This document shows, in pieces, positions 2 to 6,180 of a stretch of 39,034 nt of DNA (the stretch's first letter is position 1; each line of letters opens with the position of its first letter). The notes beneath the pieces are model-generated. The model ran no database searches. It saw only the letters and a list, made by a program, of their open reading frames with translations, and was not told the DNA's origin. Both the position numbers and the translations under genes were made by a program. This DNA is from Shigella phage ESh1, in the sequence record ON528715, one strand, 5' to 3'.

Positions 2-1399
2 ATTCTTACTGGTCGTGCTCGTCGTAATCAGGACACTGTGTGGGAAACCTCACTGCGCTCCATCAATGACCTAGGGTTCTTCGCTAAGAACGCCTATATG
101 GGTGCTCAGAACATTACGGAGATTGCTGGGATGATTGCAACAGGTAACGTCCGCGCTCTCGGTCATGGTATCCCAATCCTTCGCGATACTCTCTATAAGT
201 CTAAACCAGTTTCCGCTAAGGAACTTAAGGAACTACACTCGGCTCTATTCGGTAAGGAGGTGGACCAGTTGATTAGACCTCAACGTGCTGACATAGTGCA
301 GCGTCTAAGGGAAGCAACTGACACAGGACCTGTGGTGGCTAATATCGTAGGAACCTTAAAGTATTCCACGCAGGAACTGGCTGCCCGTTCTCCTTGGACG
401 AAGCTACTCAATGGGACTACTAACTACCTTCTGGATGCTGCCCGACAAGGGATGCTTGGAGACGTGATTAGTGCCACTCTCTCAGGGAAGACGACTAGAT
501 GGGAGAAGGAAGGCTTCCTGCGTGGTGCTTCTGTAACTCCTGAGCAGATGAAGGGAATCAGGGCACTCATTAAGGAACACATGGTACGTGGTAAGGACGG
601 TAAGTATACTGTTAAGGATAAGCACGCGTTCTCTATGGACCCAAGAGCTATGGACCTGTGGAGACTGGCTGATAAGGTAGCAGATGAGGCTATGCTGAGG
701 CCACATAAGGTTTCCTTACAGGATTCCCATGCGTTTGGTGCGTTAGGGAAGATGGTAATGCAGTTCAAGTCGTTTACTATCAAATCCCTGAACTCTAAGT
801 TCCTCCGTACCTTCTACGATGGTTACAAGAATAACCGAGCGATTGATGCCGCACTGAGTGGTATCATCTCTATGGGTCTTGCCGGAGGCTACTACGCAAT
901 GGCTGCACACGTCAAAGCGTATGGAATGCCGAAGGAGAAACGTAAGGAGTACTTAGAGCGAGCATTGGACCCGACCATGATTGCTCACGCTTCGTTGTCT
1001 CGTAGTTCTCAATTGGGTGCTCCTTTGGCAATGGCTGACCTAGTTGGTGGCCTGTTCGGGGTTGAGTCCTCAAAGATGGCTCGCTCTACTATTCTACCTA
1101 AGGACACCATGAAGGAGCGTGACCCTAATAAGCCTTATACCTCGTGGGAGGTTATGGGTAATATGGGGTCTAACATTCTGGAACAGATGCCTTCGGCTGG
1201 CTTCGTGGCTAACGTAGGGGCTTCCCTACTTAATACTGCTGGCGTGGTGAATGCTCCCAACAAAGCCACTGAGCAGGACTTCATGACTGGTCTTATGAAC
1301 TCCACAAAAGAGTTAGTACCTAACGACCCATTGACGCAACAGCTTGTGTTGAAGATTTATGAGGCGAACGGTGTTAACTTGAGGGAGCGTAGGAAATAA
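2..1399 (+). CDS. 16: Internal virion protein D (gp16), C-terminal portion; 5' partial at window edge, continuous with 36477..39034
   Basis: Open frame from position 2 (ILTGRARRNQDTVWETSLRS...) to stop at 1397-1399; matches the C-terminal third of T7 gp16 as recalled. Window end (..HALMDTVK) joins window start (ILTGRARR..) in frame. Confidence 0.9.
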   Translation: MLTGRARRNQDTVWETSLRSINDLGFFAKNAYMGAQNITEIAGMIATGNVRALGHGIPILRDTLYKSKPVSAKELKELHSALFGKEVDQLIRPQRADIVQRLREATDTGPVVANIVGTLKYSTQELAARSPWTKLLNGTTNYLLDAARQGMLGDVISATLSGKTTRWEKEGFLRGASVTPEQMKGIRALIKEHMVRGKDGKYTVKDKHAFSMDPRAMDLWRLADKVADEAMLRPHKVSLQDSHAFGALGKMVMQFKSFTIKSLNSKFLRTFYDGYKNNRAIDAALSGIISMGLAGGYYAMAAHVKAYGMPKEKRKEYLERALDPTMIAHASLSRSSQLGAPLAMADLVGGLFGVESSKMARSTILPKDTMKERDPNKPYTSWEVMGNMGSNILEQMPSAGFVANVGASLLNTAGVVNAPNKATEQDFMTGLMNSTKELVPNDPLTQQLVLKIYEANGVNLRERRK

Positions 1400-1419
1400 T
1401 ACGACTCACTATAGGGAGA
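1397..1419 (+). promoter_or_regulatory. Phage RNAP promoter phi17 (TAATACGACTCACTATAGGGAGA)
   Basis: Exact 23-bp T7 class III consensus, overlapping the gene 16 stop, upstream of gene 17. Confidence 0.9.
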
Positions 1420-1471: not shown

Positions 1472-3346
1472 ATGGCTAACGTAATTAAAACCGTTTTGAC
1501 TTACCAGTTAGATGGCTCCAATCGTGATTTTAATATCCCGTTTGAGTATCTAGCCCGTAAGTTCGTAGTGGTAACTCTTATCGGTGTAGACCGCAAGGTC
1601 CTTACTATTAATACAGACTACCGTTTCGCTACTCGTACTACAATCTCACTGACTAAGGCTTGGGGTCCAGCGGATGGCTACACTACTATCGAGTTACGTC
1701 GAGTAACCTCCACGACCGACCGCTTGGTTGACTTTACGGACGGCTCAATCCTTCGTGCGTATGACCTTAACGTTGCCCAGATTCAAACGATGCACGTAGC
1801 GGAAGAGGCGCGTGGCCTTACTGCCGATACCATCGGTGTCAATAACGATGGTCACTTAGATGCCCGTGGTCGTCGCATTGTGAACCTAGCGAACGCCGTG
1901 GATGACCGTGATGCTGTTCCTTTTGGTCAACTAAAGACCATGAACCAGAACTCATGGCATGCTCGAAATGAGGCCCTACAGTTCCGCAATGAGGCTCAGA
2001 ATTTCCGCAATCAAGCGGAAGGCTTTAAGAACGCGTCAGATACTAACGCTACTAACACAAAGCAGTGGCGAGATGAGGCTGAGGGGTTCCGTAATGAGGC
2101 CGAGCAATTCAAGAATACGGCTGGTCAATATGCCACCTCTGCTGGGAACTCTGCGTCTGCTGCTCATCAATCTGAGGTAAACGCTGGGAACTCAGCTACT
2201 GCCTCCGCAGATTCTGCCGCTTCTTCGAAACAGCAAGCAGACCGAGCGAAGCAGGAGGCAGACAAACTGGGCAACTGGAATGCACTTGCAGGGGCCATTG
2301 AGGGTGTTGATGGTAACGATGTAACGTTTAAAGGCATTATCAAAACACCGTTTAACGTTGTAGGTGGCGGCCTTGTCTCTACTGGTGCTGCAAGCATTGC
2401 AAAGGGTTTGAGTGTTGATGGTGGACTTGTTGTTGGTGAAGATATCGCTGCACATAAGGATGTGTGGGTAGATGGTGTGGTTGTTGCCAATGGTGGTATA
2501 CAGCAACAGTCTGGACCTAATTCCACTAATGATATGTGGCGACTGTTTATTAAAGGGGGACCAATGCATATTGGAAACCGACAAGGCCTTCACCTTGGTT
2601 GGAACGAGAGTGTTGGTACAGGGGCGTCATCCTTTATTACCAACAAAGGCTTAGGTGATGGGGGTTTTATTTTCCGCACGGTAAACTTTGAGAACACTGC
2701 TGAGATTGGTCGCGTTACATTCACTGGTAACGGTGGAGTACGCGCCTTCGATTTACAAGCAGTTAACGGTGCGCGCATTGAGGCTGGAAACAATATAGTA
2801 GGCGCAAGGATTTTCTCAGGAATGGGCAGCTGCCAATTCGATACCGAAGGTAACTTACTGGGAGGACTATGGAACCGCGTTGGTGGTGACCTATACAACT
2901 TCCTGTGGAACAAGGGTCACTTCGCTAAGCCACCTGCTGGAGTCCAGTTGTTTACATCCCGTGGTGGTGACTACCTCGAGGGTCTCGTGGATAACACGGC
3001 TGTAGGGTTCCGCTGGTTTCTGTCAGACAGGAGACTTAAAGAAAACATAAAGGTTGTACGCTCCGCTGAGGATATGCTCAATATTATCCGCTCGTACATC
3101 CCGGTTTCCTATAAGTATAAGGACTCTGAGTATGTTGATAAGCGTGGTAGAACGGTAAGAATTACCGGTAAGAACTCTCGCGCTGGTTTCATTACTCAGG
3201 ATTTGATTAGAATCTGGCCTGAGGCGGTGGACGTGCTGTCCGATGGTATGCAATCACCAGACCCTAACCAAATCATTGGTGGACTAATGCTTCTTGTCAA
3301 GAACCTTGACGAACGTGTACAGGAGTTGGAGAAAAATAACGCTTAA
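1472..3346 (+). CDS. 17: Tail fiber protein (gp17), mosaic: T7-like N-terminal region, divergent central/receptor-binding region, C-terminal chaperone-like module
   Basis: 624-aa ORF with RBS TAAGGAGGT. N-terminus MANVIKTVLTYQLDGSNRDFNIPFEYLARKF matches T7 gp17 to about residue 270, then diverges; C-terminal motif FLSDRRLKENI resembles auto-cleaving intramolecular chaperone domains. Confidence 0.9.
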   Translation: MANVIKTVLTYQLDGSNRDFNIPFEYLARKFVVVTLIGVDRKVLTINTDYRFATRTTISLTKAWGPADGYTTIELRRVTSTTDRLVDFTDGSILRAYDLNVAQIQTMHVAEEARGLTADTIGVNNDGHLDARGRRIVNLANAVDDRDAVPFGQLKTMNQNSWHARNEALQFRNEAQNFRNQAEGFKNASDTNATNTKQWRDEAEGFRNEAEQFKNTAGQYATSAGNSASAAHQSEVNAGNSATASADSAASSKQQADRAKQEADKLGNWNALAGAIEGVDGNDVTFKGIIKTPFNVVGGGLVSTGAASIAKGLSVDGGLVVGEDIAAHKDVWVDGVVVANGGIQQQSGPNSTNDMWRLFIKGGPMHIGNRQGLHLGWNESVGTGASSFITNKGLGDGGFIFRTVNFENTAEIGRVTFTGNGGVRAFDLQAVNGARIEAGNNIVGARIFSGMGSCQFDTEGNLLGGLWNRVGGDLYNFLWNKGHFAKPPAGVQLFTSRGGDYLEGLVDNTAVGFRWFLSDRRLKENIKVVRSAEDMLNIIRSYIPVSYKYKDSEYVDKRGRTVRITGKNSRAGFITQDLIRIWPEAVDVLSDGMQSPDPNQIIGGLMLLVKNLDERVQELEKNNA

Positions 3347-3394
3347 GGATGACACCAGATTAGGACCAAGGATGGTCTTTAATAAGGAGGATAC

Positions 3395-3598
3395 ATGCTG
3401 TCTTTGGATTTCAATAACGAGTTAGTCAAGGCTGCGCCTATTGTTGGCACTGGTGTGGCTGATGGCGCTGCGAGGCTTTTCTTCGGGCTGAGTCTTAATG
3501 AGTGGTTCTATATTGCTGCTATCGCCTACACAGTGGTTCAGATTGGTGCCAAGGTAGTCGATAAAATGATTGACTGGAAGAAAGCCAATAAGGAGTGA
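3395..3598 (+). CDS. 17.5: Holin (gp17.5)
   Basis: 67 aa, MLSLDFNNELVKAAPIVGTGVADG..., near-identical to T7 gp17.5 as recalled; RBS AAGGAGG. Confidence 0.9.
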   Translation: MLSLDFNNELVKAAPIVGTGVADGAARLFFGLSLNEWFYIAAIAYTVVQIGAKVVDKMIDWKKANKE

Positions 3599-3603
3599 TA
3601 TGT

Positions 3604-3873
3604 ATGGAAAAGGATAAGAGTCTTATTACGTTCTTAGAGATGTTGGACACCGCTATGGCACAGCGTATGCTTGCTGATTTATCTAACGACGAGCGTCGGA
3701 CTCCGCAACTCTATAACGCCATTAACAAACTGTTAGACCGACATAAGTTCCAGATTGGTAAGTTGCAGCCGGATGTTCACATCTTGGGTGGCCTTGCTGG
3801 TGCTCTTGAAGAGTACAAAGAGAAAGTCGGTGATAACGGCCTTACGGATGACGATTTGTACACATTACAGTGA
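3604..3873 (+). CDS. 18: Terminase small subunit / DNA maturation protein A (gp18)
   Basis: MEKDKSLITFLEMLDTAMAQRML... matches T7 gp18; start chosen at the internal ATG by homology (ORF track begins 9 nt upstream). Confidence 0.85.
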   Translation: MEKDKSLITFLEMLDTAMAQRMLADLSNDERRTPQLYNAINKLLDRHKFQIGKLQPDVHILGGLAGALEEYKEKVGDNGLTDDDLYTLQ

Positions 3874-3877
3874 TATA

Positions 3878-3920
3878 CTCAAGGCCACTACATATAGTGG
3901 TCTTTATGGATGTCATTGTC
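3878..3920 (+). promoter_or_regulatory. Probable RNase III processing hairpin (R18.5-like)
   Basis: Motif ACTCAAGG..hairpin (CCACTACATATAGTGG)..CTTTATGGAT, same architecture as other T7 RNase III sites; boundaries approximate. Confidence 0.4.
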
Positions 3921-3967
3921 TATACGAGATGCTCCTACGTGAAATCTGAAAGTTAACGGGAGGCATT

Positions 3968-4411
3968 ATGCTGCAATTTTTACGTAAGCTAGTCCCTTGG
4001 GTTCTCGCTGGGATGCTATTCGGATGGGGATGGCAACTTGGGGCAGACTCAATGGACGCTAAGTGGAAACAGGAGGTACAGAATGAGTACGTTAAGAGAG
4101 TTGAGGCTACGGCGAGTACTCAAAGAGCAATCAATGAAATATCGGCTAAGTATCAAGAAGACCTTGCCGCGCTGGAAGGGAGCACTGATAGGATTATTTC
4201 TGATTTGCGTAGCGACAATAAGCGGCTGCGCGTCAGAGTCAAACCTACCGGAACCTCCGATGGTAAGTGTGGATTCGAGCCTGATGGTAGAGCCGAACTT
4301 GACGACAGAGATGCTAAGCGTATTCTCGCAGTGACCCAAAAGGGTGACGCATGGATTCGTGCGTTACAAGATACTATTCGTGAACTGCAACGTAAGCAGG
4401 AAATCAAGTAG
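3968..4411 (+). CDS. 18.5: Rz-like i-spanin (gp18.5)
   Basis: 147 aa, N-terminal TM segment [15 protein letters not shown], matches T7 gp18.5. Confidence 0.85.
4083..4334 (+). CDS. 18.7: Rz1-like o-spanin lipoprotein (gp18.7), embedded in 18.5 in the +1 frame
   Basis: [26 protein letters not shown] (lipobox-like ISGC) followed by proline-rich region; matches T7 gp18.7; start chosen by homology inside the longer ORF 4038..4334. Confidence 0.8.
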   Translation: MSTLRELRLRRVLKEQSMKYRLSIKKTLPRWKGALIGLFLICVATISGCASESNLPEPPMVSVDSSLMVEPNLTTEMLSVFSQ

Positions 4412-4419
4412 GAGGCAAT

Positions 4420-6180
4420 GTGTCTACTCAATCCAATCGTAATGCGCTCGTAGTGGCGCAACTGAAAGGAGACTTCGTGGCGTTTCTGTTCGTCTTATGG
4501 AAGGCGTTAAACCTTCCGGTGCCCACTAAGTGTCAGATTGACATGGCTAAGGTGCTGGCGAATGGAGATAACAAGAAGTTCATCTTACAGGCTTTCCGTG
4601 GTATCGGTAAGTCATTCATCACCTGTGCGTTCGTTGTGTGGTCCTTATGGAGAGACCCTCAGTTGAAGATACTTATTGTATCAGCCTCTAAGGAACGTGC
4701 AGACGCTAACTCCATCTTTATTAAGAACATCATTGACCTGCTGCCGTTCCTAGCTGAGTTAAAGCCAAGACCAGGACAGCGTGACTCGGTAATCAGCTTT
4801 GATGTAGGCCCAGCCAATCCTGACCACTCTCCTAGTGTAAAATCAGTAGGTATTACTGGTCAGTTAACAGGTAGCCGTGCTGACATTATTATTGCGGATG
4901 ACGTTGAGATTCCGTCTAACAGTGCAACTATGGGTGCCCGTGAGAAGCTATGGACTCTGGTTCAGGAGTTCGCTGCATTACTTAAGCCACTGCCTTCCTC
5001 CCGCGTTATCTACCTTGGTACACCTCAGACAGAGATGACTCTCTATAAGGAACTTGAGGATAACCGTGGATACACAACCATAATCTGGCCTGCTCTGTAC
5101 CCAAGGACTCGTGAAGAGAACCTCTATTACTCACAGCGTCTTGCTCCTATGCTACGTGCTGAGTACGATGAGAACCCTGAGGCACTCGCTGGGACTCCGA
5201 CAGACCCTGTGCGCTTTGACCGTGATGACCTCCGTGAGCGTGAGTTGGAATACGGCAAGGCTGGCTTCACACTACAGTTCATGCTTAACCCGAACTTGAG
5301 TGATGCCGAGAAGTACCCTCTGAGGCTTCGTGATGCTATCGTAGCGGCCTTAGACTTAGAGAAGGCCCCAATGCATTACCAGTGGCTTCCTAACCGTCAG
5401 AACATCATTGAGGACCTTCCTAACGTTGGCCTTAAAGGTGATGACCTTCATACGTACCATGAGTGCTCTAACAACTCTGGTCAGTATCAACAGAAGATTC
5501 TGGTCATTGACCCGAGTGGTCGCGGTAAGGATGAAACAGGTTACGCTGTGCTGTACACCCTGAACGGTTACATCTACCTAATGGAAGCTGGAGGTTTCCG
5601 TGATGGCTACTCTGATAAGACCCTTGAGTTACTCGCTAAGAAAGCTAAGCAATGGGGAGTCCAGACGGTTGTCTACGAGAGTAACTTCGGTGACGGTATG
5701 TTTGGTAAGGTATTCAGTCCTATACTTCTTAAACACCACAACTGCGCAATGGAAGAGATTCGTGCTCGTGGTATGAAGGAGATGCGTATTTGTGATACCC
5801 TTGAGCCAGTCATGCAGACTCACCGCCTTGTCATTCGTGATGAGGTCATTAGGGCCGACTATCAGTCCGCTCGTGACGTAGACGGTAAGCATGACGTTAA
5901 GTACTCACTGTTCTACCAGATGACCCGTATCACTCGTGAGAAAGGTGCTCTGGCTCATGATGACCGATTGGATGCCCTTGCGTTAGGCATTGAGTATCTC
6001 CGTGAGTCCATGCAGTTGGATTCCGTTAAGGTCGAAGGTGAAGTGCTTGCTGACTTCCTTGAGGAGCACATGATGCGTCCTACAGTGTCTGCTACCCACA
6101 TCATTGAGATGTCTGTAGGAGGAGTTGATGTGTACTCCGAGGACGATGAGGGTTACGGTACGTCTTTCATTGAGTGGTGA
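4420..6180 (+). CDS. 19: Terminase large subunit / DNA maturation protein B (gp19), GTG start
   Basis: 586 aa, [19 protein letters not shown]... essentially T7 gp19; RBS GGAGG 6 nt upstream of GTG. Confidence 0.92.

Follow-up and report, generated by a model that had tools for sequence, protein, structure and literature searches.

Gene 17 of Shigella phage ESh1 encodes a modular T7-type tail fiber with a phiYeO3-12-type distal cassette and an S74 chaperone module

Gene 17 of Shigella phage ESh1 (sequence record ON528715) lies at positions 1472 to 3346 of the 39,034-bp stretch under study (the window), which is the entire deposited ESh1 genome, and encodes a tail fiber precursor, gp17. Sequence comparisons establish the domain architecture of this protein and the boundaries between its parts, a conserved Ser/Lys dyad in its C-terminal module, and the shuffling of modules among related fibers. 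In our judgment (probability of about 0.82), the whole of the data is best explained by a modular T7-type fiber with a distal cassette like that of phage phiYeO3-12, matured by S74 self-cleavage and directed at an O-antigen-type receptor. An earlier note on this DNA had proposed a mosaic fiber in which a T7-like N-terminal region is fused to a different receptor-binding region and an auto-cleaving, chaperone-like C terminus. The features of gene 17 are as follows.

1472..3346, plus strand: gene 17, tail fiber precursor (624 amino acids from an ATG start, followed by a stop codon; 67.8 kDa)
1472..1957, plus strand: tail-attachment (adaptor) domain, residues 1-162 (PF03906 Phage_T7_tail)
1958..2263, plus strand: T7-like coiled-coil shaft with FRNEA-type repeats, residues ~163-264 (aligned to T7 gp17)
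2237..2344, plus strand: conserved junction segment ADRAKQEADKLGNWNALAGAIEGVDGNDVTFKG, residues 256-291, common to T7/T3-type and phiYeO3-12-type fibers
2323..3365, plus strand: replacement cassette relative to T7/T3, from codon 285 to the stop codon plus a spacer of ~19 nucleotides (nt) (blastn)
2345..3022, plus strand: beta-rich receptor-binding region of the predicted mature fiber, residues 292-517 (homology to phiYeO3-12-type fibers)
2540..2914, plus strand: conserved core module, residues 357-481, with the pattern QG..WNE..G.G...N.G.G.GGF.FR.VN..NT.E.G.VT (phmmer, alignment)
3020..3040, plus strand: predicted scissile bond Leu517/Ser518 and Ser518...Lys523 dyad, L-SDRRLK (invariance, alignment, and fragment mass of a homolog)
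3023..3343, plus strand: Peptidase_S74 intramolecular chaperone, residues 518-624 (PF13884)

The N-terminal half is of the T7 type

Pfam assigned residues 1 to 162 to PF03906 with an E value of 4.7e-73 and the profile covered in full, and this adaptor is 99% identical to T7 gp17 over residues 1 to 150. In a phmmer search of PDB sequences, it matched the cryo-electron microscopy chains 7boz, 8e4g, and 8dsp; residues 1 to 291 aligned to T7 gp17 (7boz) at near-identity, and nothing significant was found beyond residue 291. In a six-way alignment, identity to T7 and T3 is 90 to 100% up to residue ~180, 67 to 93% up to residue 270, and 10 to 27% past residue 300, while identity to the fibers of phages NC-A, Bas102, and vB_Yep_9 is 53 to 100% throughout. 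The shaft, with FRNEAE at residues 206 to 211, varies among family members, as judged from entropy in a set of 56 full-length relatives that also served for the comparisons of conservation and modules.

The earlier note had put gp17 at 624 residues and T7 gp17 at 553, and both lengths are correct (T3 gp17 has 558). It had also extended the resemblance to T7 over about the first 270 residues; the near-identity is real, and its end falls at residue ~284 to 291 (nt 2322 by blastn) instead. The claim that the sequence past this point is unrelated to the T7 tip holds, given the low identity after residue 300 and the lack of a PDB match past residue 291. A T7/T3-type distal half and tip domain was found neither in the protein alignment nor as nucleotide homology over 2323 to 3365, and by full-length alignment with T7 and T3 the C-terminal region is not a T7/T3-type tip domain. 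ESh1 gp17 thus resembles its T7 and T3 counterparts in residues 1 to 291, which are near-identical, and in genomic position, promoter, and flanking genes, but their distal halves are unrelated to that of ESh1 and lack the S74 chaperone.

The distal half is a replacement cassette assembled from exchangeable modules

By blastn, T7 matches the window at positions 1 to 2322 and 3366 to 4500, and T3 matches it at 1 to 2322 and 3360 to 4500. Since nucleotide homology to both phages stops at 2322 and returns at 3360 to 3366, the cassette that differs spans 2323 to 3365. A search for the closest C-terminal homologs returned the fibers of phiYeO3-12, NC-A, and Bas102 (65 to 83% amino acid identity), and the cassette is of their type. 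More broadly, the C-terminal 354 amino acids recur at 58 to 83% identity in T7-like and T3-like phages of Escherichia, Shigella, Yersinia, Enterobacter, Citrobacter, Klebsiella, and Serratia.

The distribution of the whole gene is much narrower. It was matched at a coverage of at least 80% in only six phage records (64795_ec1, Bas102, NC-A, and vB_Yep_9, some of them duplicated), and more than 200 records match just the first ~820 to 846 nt. Over positions 4000 to 28000, the closest whole-genome relatives of ESh1 are 04922B, vB_YenP_WW2, and a T7 isolate, all ~92% identical; apart from Bas102, the six whole-gene records are absent from the closest whole-genome relatives. We also observed that the gene 17 homolog in the 64795_ec1 record (KU927499; locus coordinates 2501-4373) is annotated as two overlapping coding sequences named “tail fibers protein” (2501-3373 and 3348-4373), so that the record may contain a frameshift or a sequencing error.

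The junction at residues 256 to 291 is supported by the alignment with its identities per 30 residues, by an entropy minimum at residues 256 to 270, and by the blastn end points. Both fiber types keep the pattern ADKLGNxNxLAGAIxxVxGNxV at residues ~262 to 285, and the 5' boundary of the cassette falls within it. Since conservation in the family also peaks locally at this segment, it is a plausible site of homologous recombination. It appears from the sequences that an ancestral recombination at residues 256 to 291 swapped the whole distal half of a T7 fiber for a phiYeO3-12-type cassette.

Among the 56 relatives, one finds the cassette joined to at least three types of N-terminal adaptor (95 to 99%, ~70%, or ~77 to 82% identical to T7) and to shafts that are 23 to 91% identical to that of ESh1. 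In two relatives (P0058 and P0059) the chaperone is 78 to 85% identical to that of ESh1 and the receptor-binding region just 33% identical, so exchange or retention of the chaperone does not seem to be tied to that of the binding region. In these varied pairings, adaptor, shaft, binding region, and chaperone act as separately exchangeable modules. The mosaic character ascribed to gp17 in the earlier note is thus upheld, both by the break and return of T7/T3 homology and by the joining of one cassette to several N-terminal types.

The C-terminal module is of the S74 chaperone type and has an invariant dyad

Residues 518 to 586 of the 624 match PF13884 (Peptidase_S74, “chaperone of endosialidase”) with an E value of 2.9e-12 and a score of 47.1 bits, where the curated cutoff is 22. 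The earlier description of a C-terminal chaperone-like module of about 110 residues was therefore right in kind, and the module measures 107 amino acids (518 to 624). The motif FLSDRRLKENI, which opens it, occupies residues 516 to 526 (nt 3017-3049); like FRNEAE and the Gly/Val-rich stretch described below, it is present where it had been reported. Residues 511 to 615 are the most conserved part of gp17, with the lowest entropy in the family, and none of the 56 relatives departs from S518, D519, R520, R521, or K523.

A MAFFT alignment places Ser518 and Lys523 (SDRRLK) on Ser1264 and Lys1269 of T5 pb1 (SDARLK) and on Ser911 and Lys916 of the K1F endosialidase endoNF (SNGERK), residues that we take to be the cleavage serine and the catalytic lysine of those proteins. 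The same alignment sets the terminal LDERVQELEK of gp17 against FEARLSAIEDK and IEARLSALEQK in the T5 and K1F terminal helices. A C-terminal helix, as had been predicted, is present at residues ~598 to 623 (nt 3263-3340) in both AlphaFold2 (AF2) models, with moderate confidence (predicted local distance difference test [pLDDT] of about 70). BLASTP of the chaperone against T5 pb1 and K1F was not significant, and hhalign of the family profile returned the T5 pb1 C terminus at an E value of 0.018 (probability 2.6%) and no match to the K1F C terminus. In a phmmer search of the PDB, the module weakly reached the S74 structures MYRF (7dc3), fiber 8jov, and S16 gp37 (6f45) (E values of 0.1 to 1), through the SD.RLK motif. 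The Pfam hidden Markov model is the sole significant link between gp17 and the T5 pb1 and K1F chaperones.

The best evidence for cleavage, and a gauge of where the cut falls, come from work on phiYeO3-12. Recombinant phiYeO3-12 gp17 gave a band of ~58 kDa plus a by-product of ~11 kDa (PMC7582827), and mass spectrometry found 57.423 and 12.242 kDa, which its authors read as S74 autoproteolysis (PMC8739404); the protein cleaves itself even when fused to maltose-binding protein (MBP). For residues 539 to 645 of the phiYeO3-12 protein, which begin at the SDRRLK serine, we calculated a mass of 12,258.8 Da. A cut before Ser539 fits best, since other nearby cuts are off by at least 70 Da. The published fragment of 12,242 Da is 17 Da lighter than the computed average mass; the clone may differ in sequence, the fragment may be modified, or the measurement may be off. 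The same cut applied to ESh1 gp17 gives computed masses of 67,778 Da for the precursor, 55,503 Da for residues 1 to 517, and 12,293 Da for the 107-amino-acid fragment. By analogy, gp17 is predicted to yield a mature fiber of 517 amino acids (55.5 kDa) and a released fragment of 107 amino acids (12.3 kDa). We infer the chaperone function and self-cleavage of ESh1 gp17 from its homologs. The likeness to auto-cleaving chaperones suggested in the earlier note gains support from the above-cutoff Pfam match, the invariant dyad, and the autoproteolytic homolog.

The receptor-binding region contains a widespread core

The Gly/Val-rich stretch GGGLVSTGAASIAKGLSVDGGLVVGEDIA at residues 298 to 326 (nt 2363-2449) opens the receptor-binding region, and entropy peaks within the region at residues 316 to 330 and 346 to 360. 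Residues 292 to 517 had no match in Pfam, NCBIfam, or PDB sequences, and the family profile found nothing in the PDB for this region. The AF2 model consists mostly of short strands at low confidence (for a monomer of residues 262 to 624, pLDDT of 59 and a predicted template modeling score of 0.28), and with it a Foldseek search of the PDB gave nothing significant, the top entries being 4uw8 and 3gw6 at E values of ~0.1.

An exhaustive phmmer search against 1.84 billion cluster representatives was more informative. Just two 50%-identity clusters cover the whole receptor-binding region, whereas a core at residues ~357 to 481, best conserved at 368 to 426, is common to 84 clusters. At 35 to 60% identity, this core recurs in ~80 diverse clusters of tail fibers, among them fibers from phages of Pseudomonas, Burkholderia, and Erwinia. 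We scanned 81 of these sequences (80 phmmer matches and the gp17 fragment itself) with Pfam: their anchors are T7 tail, tail-collar, Gp34 trimer, and Gp53-like C domains, and the S74 domain is also present in 33 of them. The core has no Pfam model, and a profile of its remote relatives reached the PDB solely via their S74 parts. To judge from these sequences, the binding region is a shared scaffold with variable flanks. We tentatively raise the possibility that the core (~60 to 125 amino acids) is a widespread, unmodeled fiber domain, perhaps a scaffold folded by S74 chaperones and bearing variable glycan-binding loops. If so, it would be a portable unit with which O-antigen specificity could be predicted or reengineered.

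The receptor is probably an O-antigen

A single O-antigen backbone is common to S. flexneri serotypes 2a, 3a, and 5; those of serotype 6 and S. sonnei are different. ESh1, a Teseptimavirus from sewage that was isolated on Shigella, is lytic on S. flexneri 2a, 3a, and 5 and on S. dysenteriae 1, whereas S. flexneri 6 and S. sonnei are not lysed (PMC9686686). Without being decisive, this pattern fits recognition of the common S. flexneri backbone, which serotype 6 and S. sonnei lack. The tail fiber is not mentioned in the ESh1 paper (PMC9686686). Among phages with the same type of fiber, phiYeO3-12 gp17 binds Y. enterocolitica O:3 and not its O-antigen-less (rough) mutant, and Bas102, whose host range is narrow, needs a restored O16 O-antigen (BASEL paper), presumably as its receptor. 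The receptor of T7 is the rough lipopolysaccharide (LPS) core (PMC11990801). The lysis of Shigella by ESh1 and the O-antigen dependence of relatives with the same fiber support, by analogy, a receptor specificity unlike that of T7, as the earlier note had concluded. We consider that the ESh1 receptor is probably an O-antigen, a conclusion drawn more weakly than that of cleavage.

Two observations weigh against the O-antigen as receptor: S. dysenteriae 1 is also lysed, and ESh22 and ESh35, phages from the same study that are unrelated to ESh1, have the same lysis pattern (PMC9686686). The same architecture and maturation could therefore serve a tip that binds the LPS core, as in T7, or an outer-membrane protein. 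For a single O-antigen, lysis of multiple S. flexneri serotypes and also of S. dysenteriae 1 is a broad range, other strain properties may explain a pattern that unrelated phages share, and no receptor was reported in the paper on the Shigella phage homolog vB_ShiP-A7. We nevertheless regard such a receptor as unlikely, because the homologous fibers that have been studied (phiYeO3-12 gp17 and Bas102) depend on O-antigen and because the shared S. flexneri backbone fits what ESh1 lyses. A distal region acting as an enzymatic tailspike, i.e., a polysaccharide depolymerase, is much less probable. Other S74-bearing phage proteins are enzymes (the K1F endosialidase), and many O-antigen-specific podoviruses have enzymatic spikes, but searches of gp17 against Pfam, NCBIfam, and the PDB found no catalytic domain (beta-helix lyase/hydrolase, sialidase, or esterase), and the region has just ~226 amino acids. 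The plaques of ESh1 were described as “Large” with no halo reported, in a table where a halo is noted for another phage (PMC9686686), and the BASEL authors, who noted the C-terminal chaperone domain of the Bas102 fiber, classed it as a simple fiber. We rejected the depolymerase on the missing catalytic domain and the unreported halo, and these same two points make a nonenzymatic binding fiber the best reading.

Likewise very improbable is a degenerate chaperone, an S74-like module that is not cleaved off and serves the virion as a cap for structure or binding. In its favor, cleavage of ESh1 gp17 itself is a prediction from homologs, and structural comparison with S74 folds such as 3GW6, 3GUD, and 4UW8 gave nothing significant from low-confidence models. 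A degenerate module is hard to reconcile with an invariant dyad and neighboring residues in the family, with its standing as the most conserved part of the protein, and with a phiYeO3-12 homolog that cleaves itself even as an MBP fusion.

Proposed maturation and relation to known fibers

For a self-cleaving, O-antigen-binding fiber, the following sequence of events can be proposed. The phage RNA polymerase would start at phi17 and transcribe gene 17, whose product would be the modular precursor of a homotrimeric fiber. Residues 1 to 162 would dock the fiber on the tail exactly as in T7, with ~163 to 264 forming the coiled-coil shaft, and the chaperone (518 to 624) would nucleate the trimerization and folding of the distal part. 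Cleavage of the Leu517-Ser518 bond by the Ser518/Lys523 pair would then free the 12.3-kDa fragment, leaving a 55.5-kDa fiber with its new C terminus at the distal tip. This tip may bind a host surface polysaccharide, most likely the O-antigen of S. flexneri/S. dysenteriae 1, without degrading it, and such binding would give ESh1 hosts other than those of T7. The scheme would account for a phage with a T7 backbone infecting smooth Shigella and not rough E. coli, and it predicts a virion fiber of 55.5 kDa rather than 67.8 kDa.

phiYeO3-12 gp17 (645 amino acids; close relatives in vB_YenP_AP5 and phiYe-F10) has the same PF03906 adaptor, coiled coil, beta-rich binding region, and S74 module with an identical SDRRLK. 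It shares 65% amino acid identity with ESh1 gp17 over the C-terminal 354 amino acids of the latter, and ESh1 residues 511 to 624 are 73 to 93% identical per 30-residue block. Its adaptor, in contrast, is just 73 to 83% identical and its shaft 23 to 47%, and phiYeO3-12 is a T3-like Teetrevirus on Y. enterocolitica O:3, whereas ESh1 is a T7-like Teseptimavirus on Shigella; the O-antigens of the hosts differ. Nearer still are the fibers of the Teseptimavirus phages NC-A, 64795_ec1, MeretOppenheim (Bas102), and vB_Yep_9, which share the T7-type N terminus, 82 to 86% nucleotide identity over the full length, and 81 to 83% amino acid identity in the C-terminal part. These fibers differ locally from that of ESh1 in the receptor-binding region (53 to 60% identity at residues 301 to 330), and the phages differ in host (E. 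coli NC101, E. coli K-12 O16+, and Y. enterocolitica). The K1F endosialidase gp17 and T5 pb1 are the prototypes of the C-terminal self-cleaving chaperone with a Ser-x4-Lys dyad and a terminal helix, and the K1F protein also has the T7-type N-terminal adaptor. Their upstream domains, however, are unrelated (a sialidase beta-propeller and triple beta-helix stalk in K1F, and the T5 fiber tip in pb1), and pairwise similarity of the chaperone sequences is not significant.

The design is not new: the same architecture, self-cleavage, and O-antigen binding have been published for close homologs, and the domain pair of gp17 is already listed in public databases. Mildly new are the exact boundaries of the cassette and the unmodeled conserved core in the binding region. 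The swap boundaries (nt 2322/2323 and ~3365/3366) could serve for transplanting the cassette onto other T7-like therapeutic phages, although the practical value is modest, with no new biology beyond phiYeO3-12 gp17 and BASEL phage Bas102.

The gene 17 locus and other features of the window

The expression signals and the downstream neighbor of gene 17 are as follows.

1397..1419, plus strand: phi17 class III T7-RNA-polymerase promoter, driving gene 17 and overlapping the gene 16 stop codon
1461..1469, plus strand: ribosome-binding site TAAGGAGGT, strong, 2 nt 5' of the ATG (read from the sequence)
3395..3598, plus strand: gene 17.5, class II holin, 67 amino acids (open reading frame [ORF] list; T7 homology has returned by here in blastn)

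The phi17 promoter is a perfect 23-nt match to TAATACGACTCACTATAGGGAGA, with 0 expected by chance, and phi17 is annotated at the same position in T7. Gene 17.5 occupies the position of the annotated holin in T7, T3, and phiYeO3-12. Preceded by gene 16 and phi17 and followed by the gene 17.5 holin, gene 17 has the location of a T7-type gp17 gene and matches the T7, T3, and phiYeO3-12 loci. Its product matches PHROG 9502 (“tail fiber protein”) over its full length (E value of 5.5e-289; residues 1 to 623 against profile positions 1 to 645 of 647) and is 100% identical to the deposited “non-contractile tail fiber protein” of ESh1 (ON528715); no NCBIfam model matches gp17, the holin, or the gp16 fragment. 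Two antisense ORFs lie within gene 17 on the minus strand (2167-2526 and 2192-2593; 119 and 133 amino acids) and are probably mechanical. Antisense-encoded peptides were claimed in virions of a related phage in the vB_ShiP-A7 paper.

The ESh1 record is linearized arbitrarily inside gene 16, which splits gp16 into a C-terminal part at 38-1399 and an N-terminal part cut short at the 3' end. Because the 39,034-bp sequence contains no direct repeat of 60 nt or longer, assembly appears to have collapsed the T7-type terminal repeat. Ten T7-RNA-polymerase-type promoters were found on the plus strand (1397, 6262, 7208, 12795, 12869, 13355, 24789, 27742, 28772, and 33140), six of them perfect 23-mers, which points to the use of promoters of T7 specificity and is consistent with Teseptimavirus.

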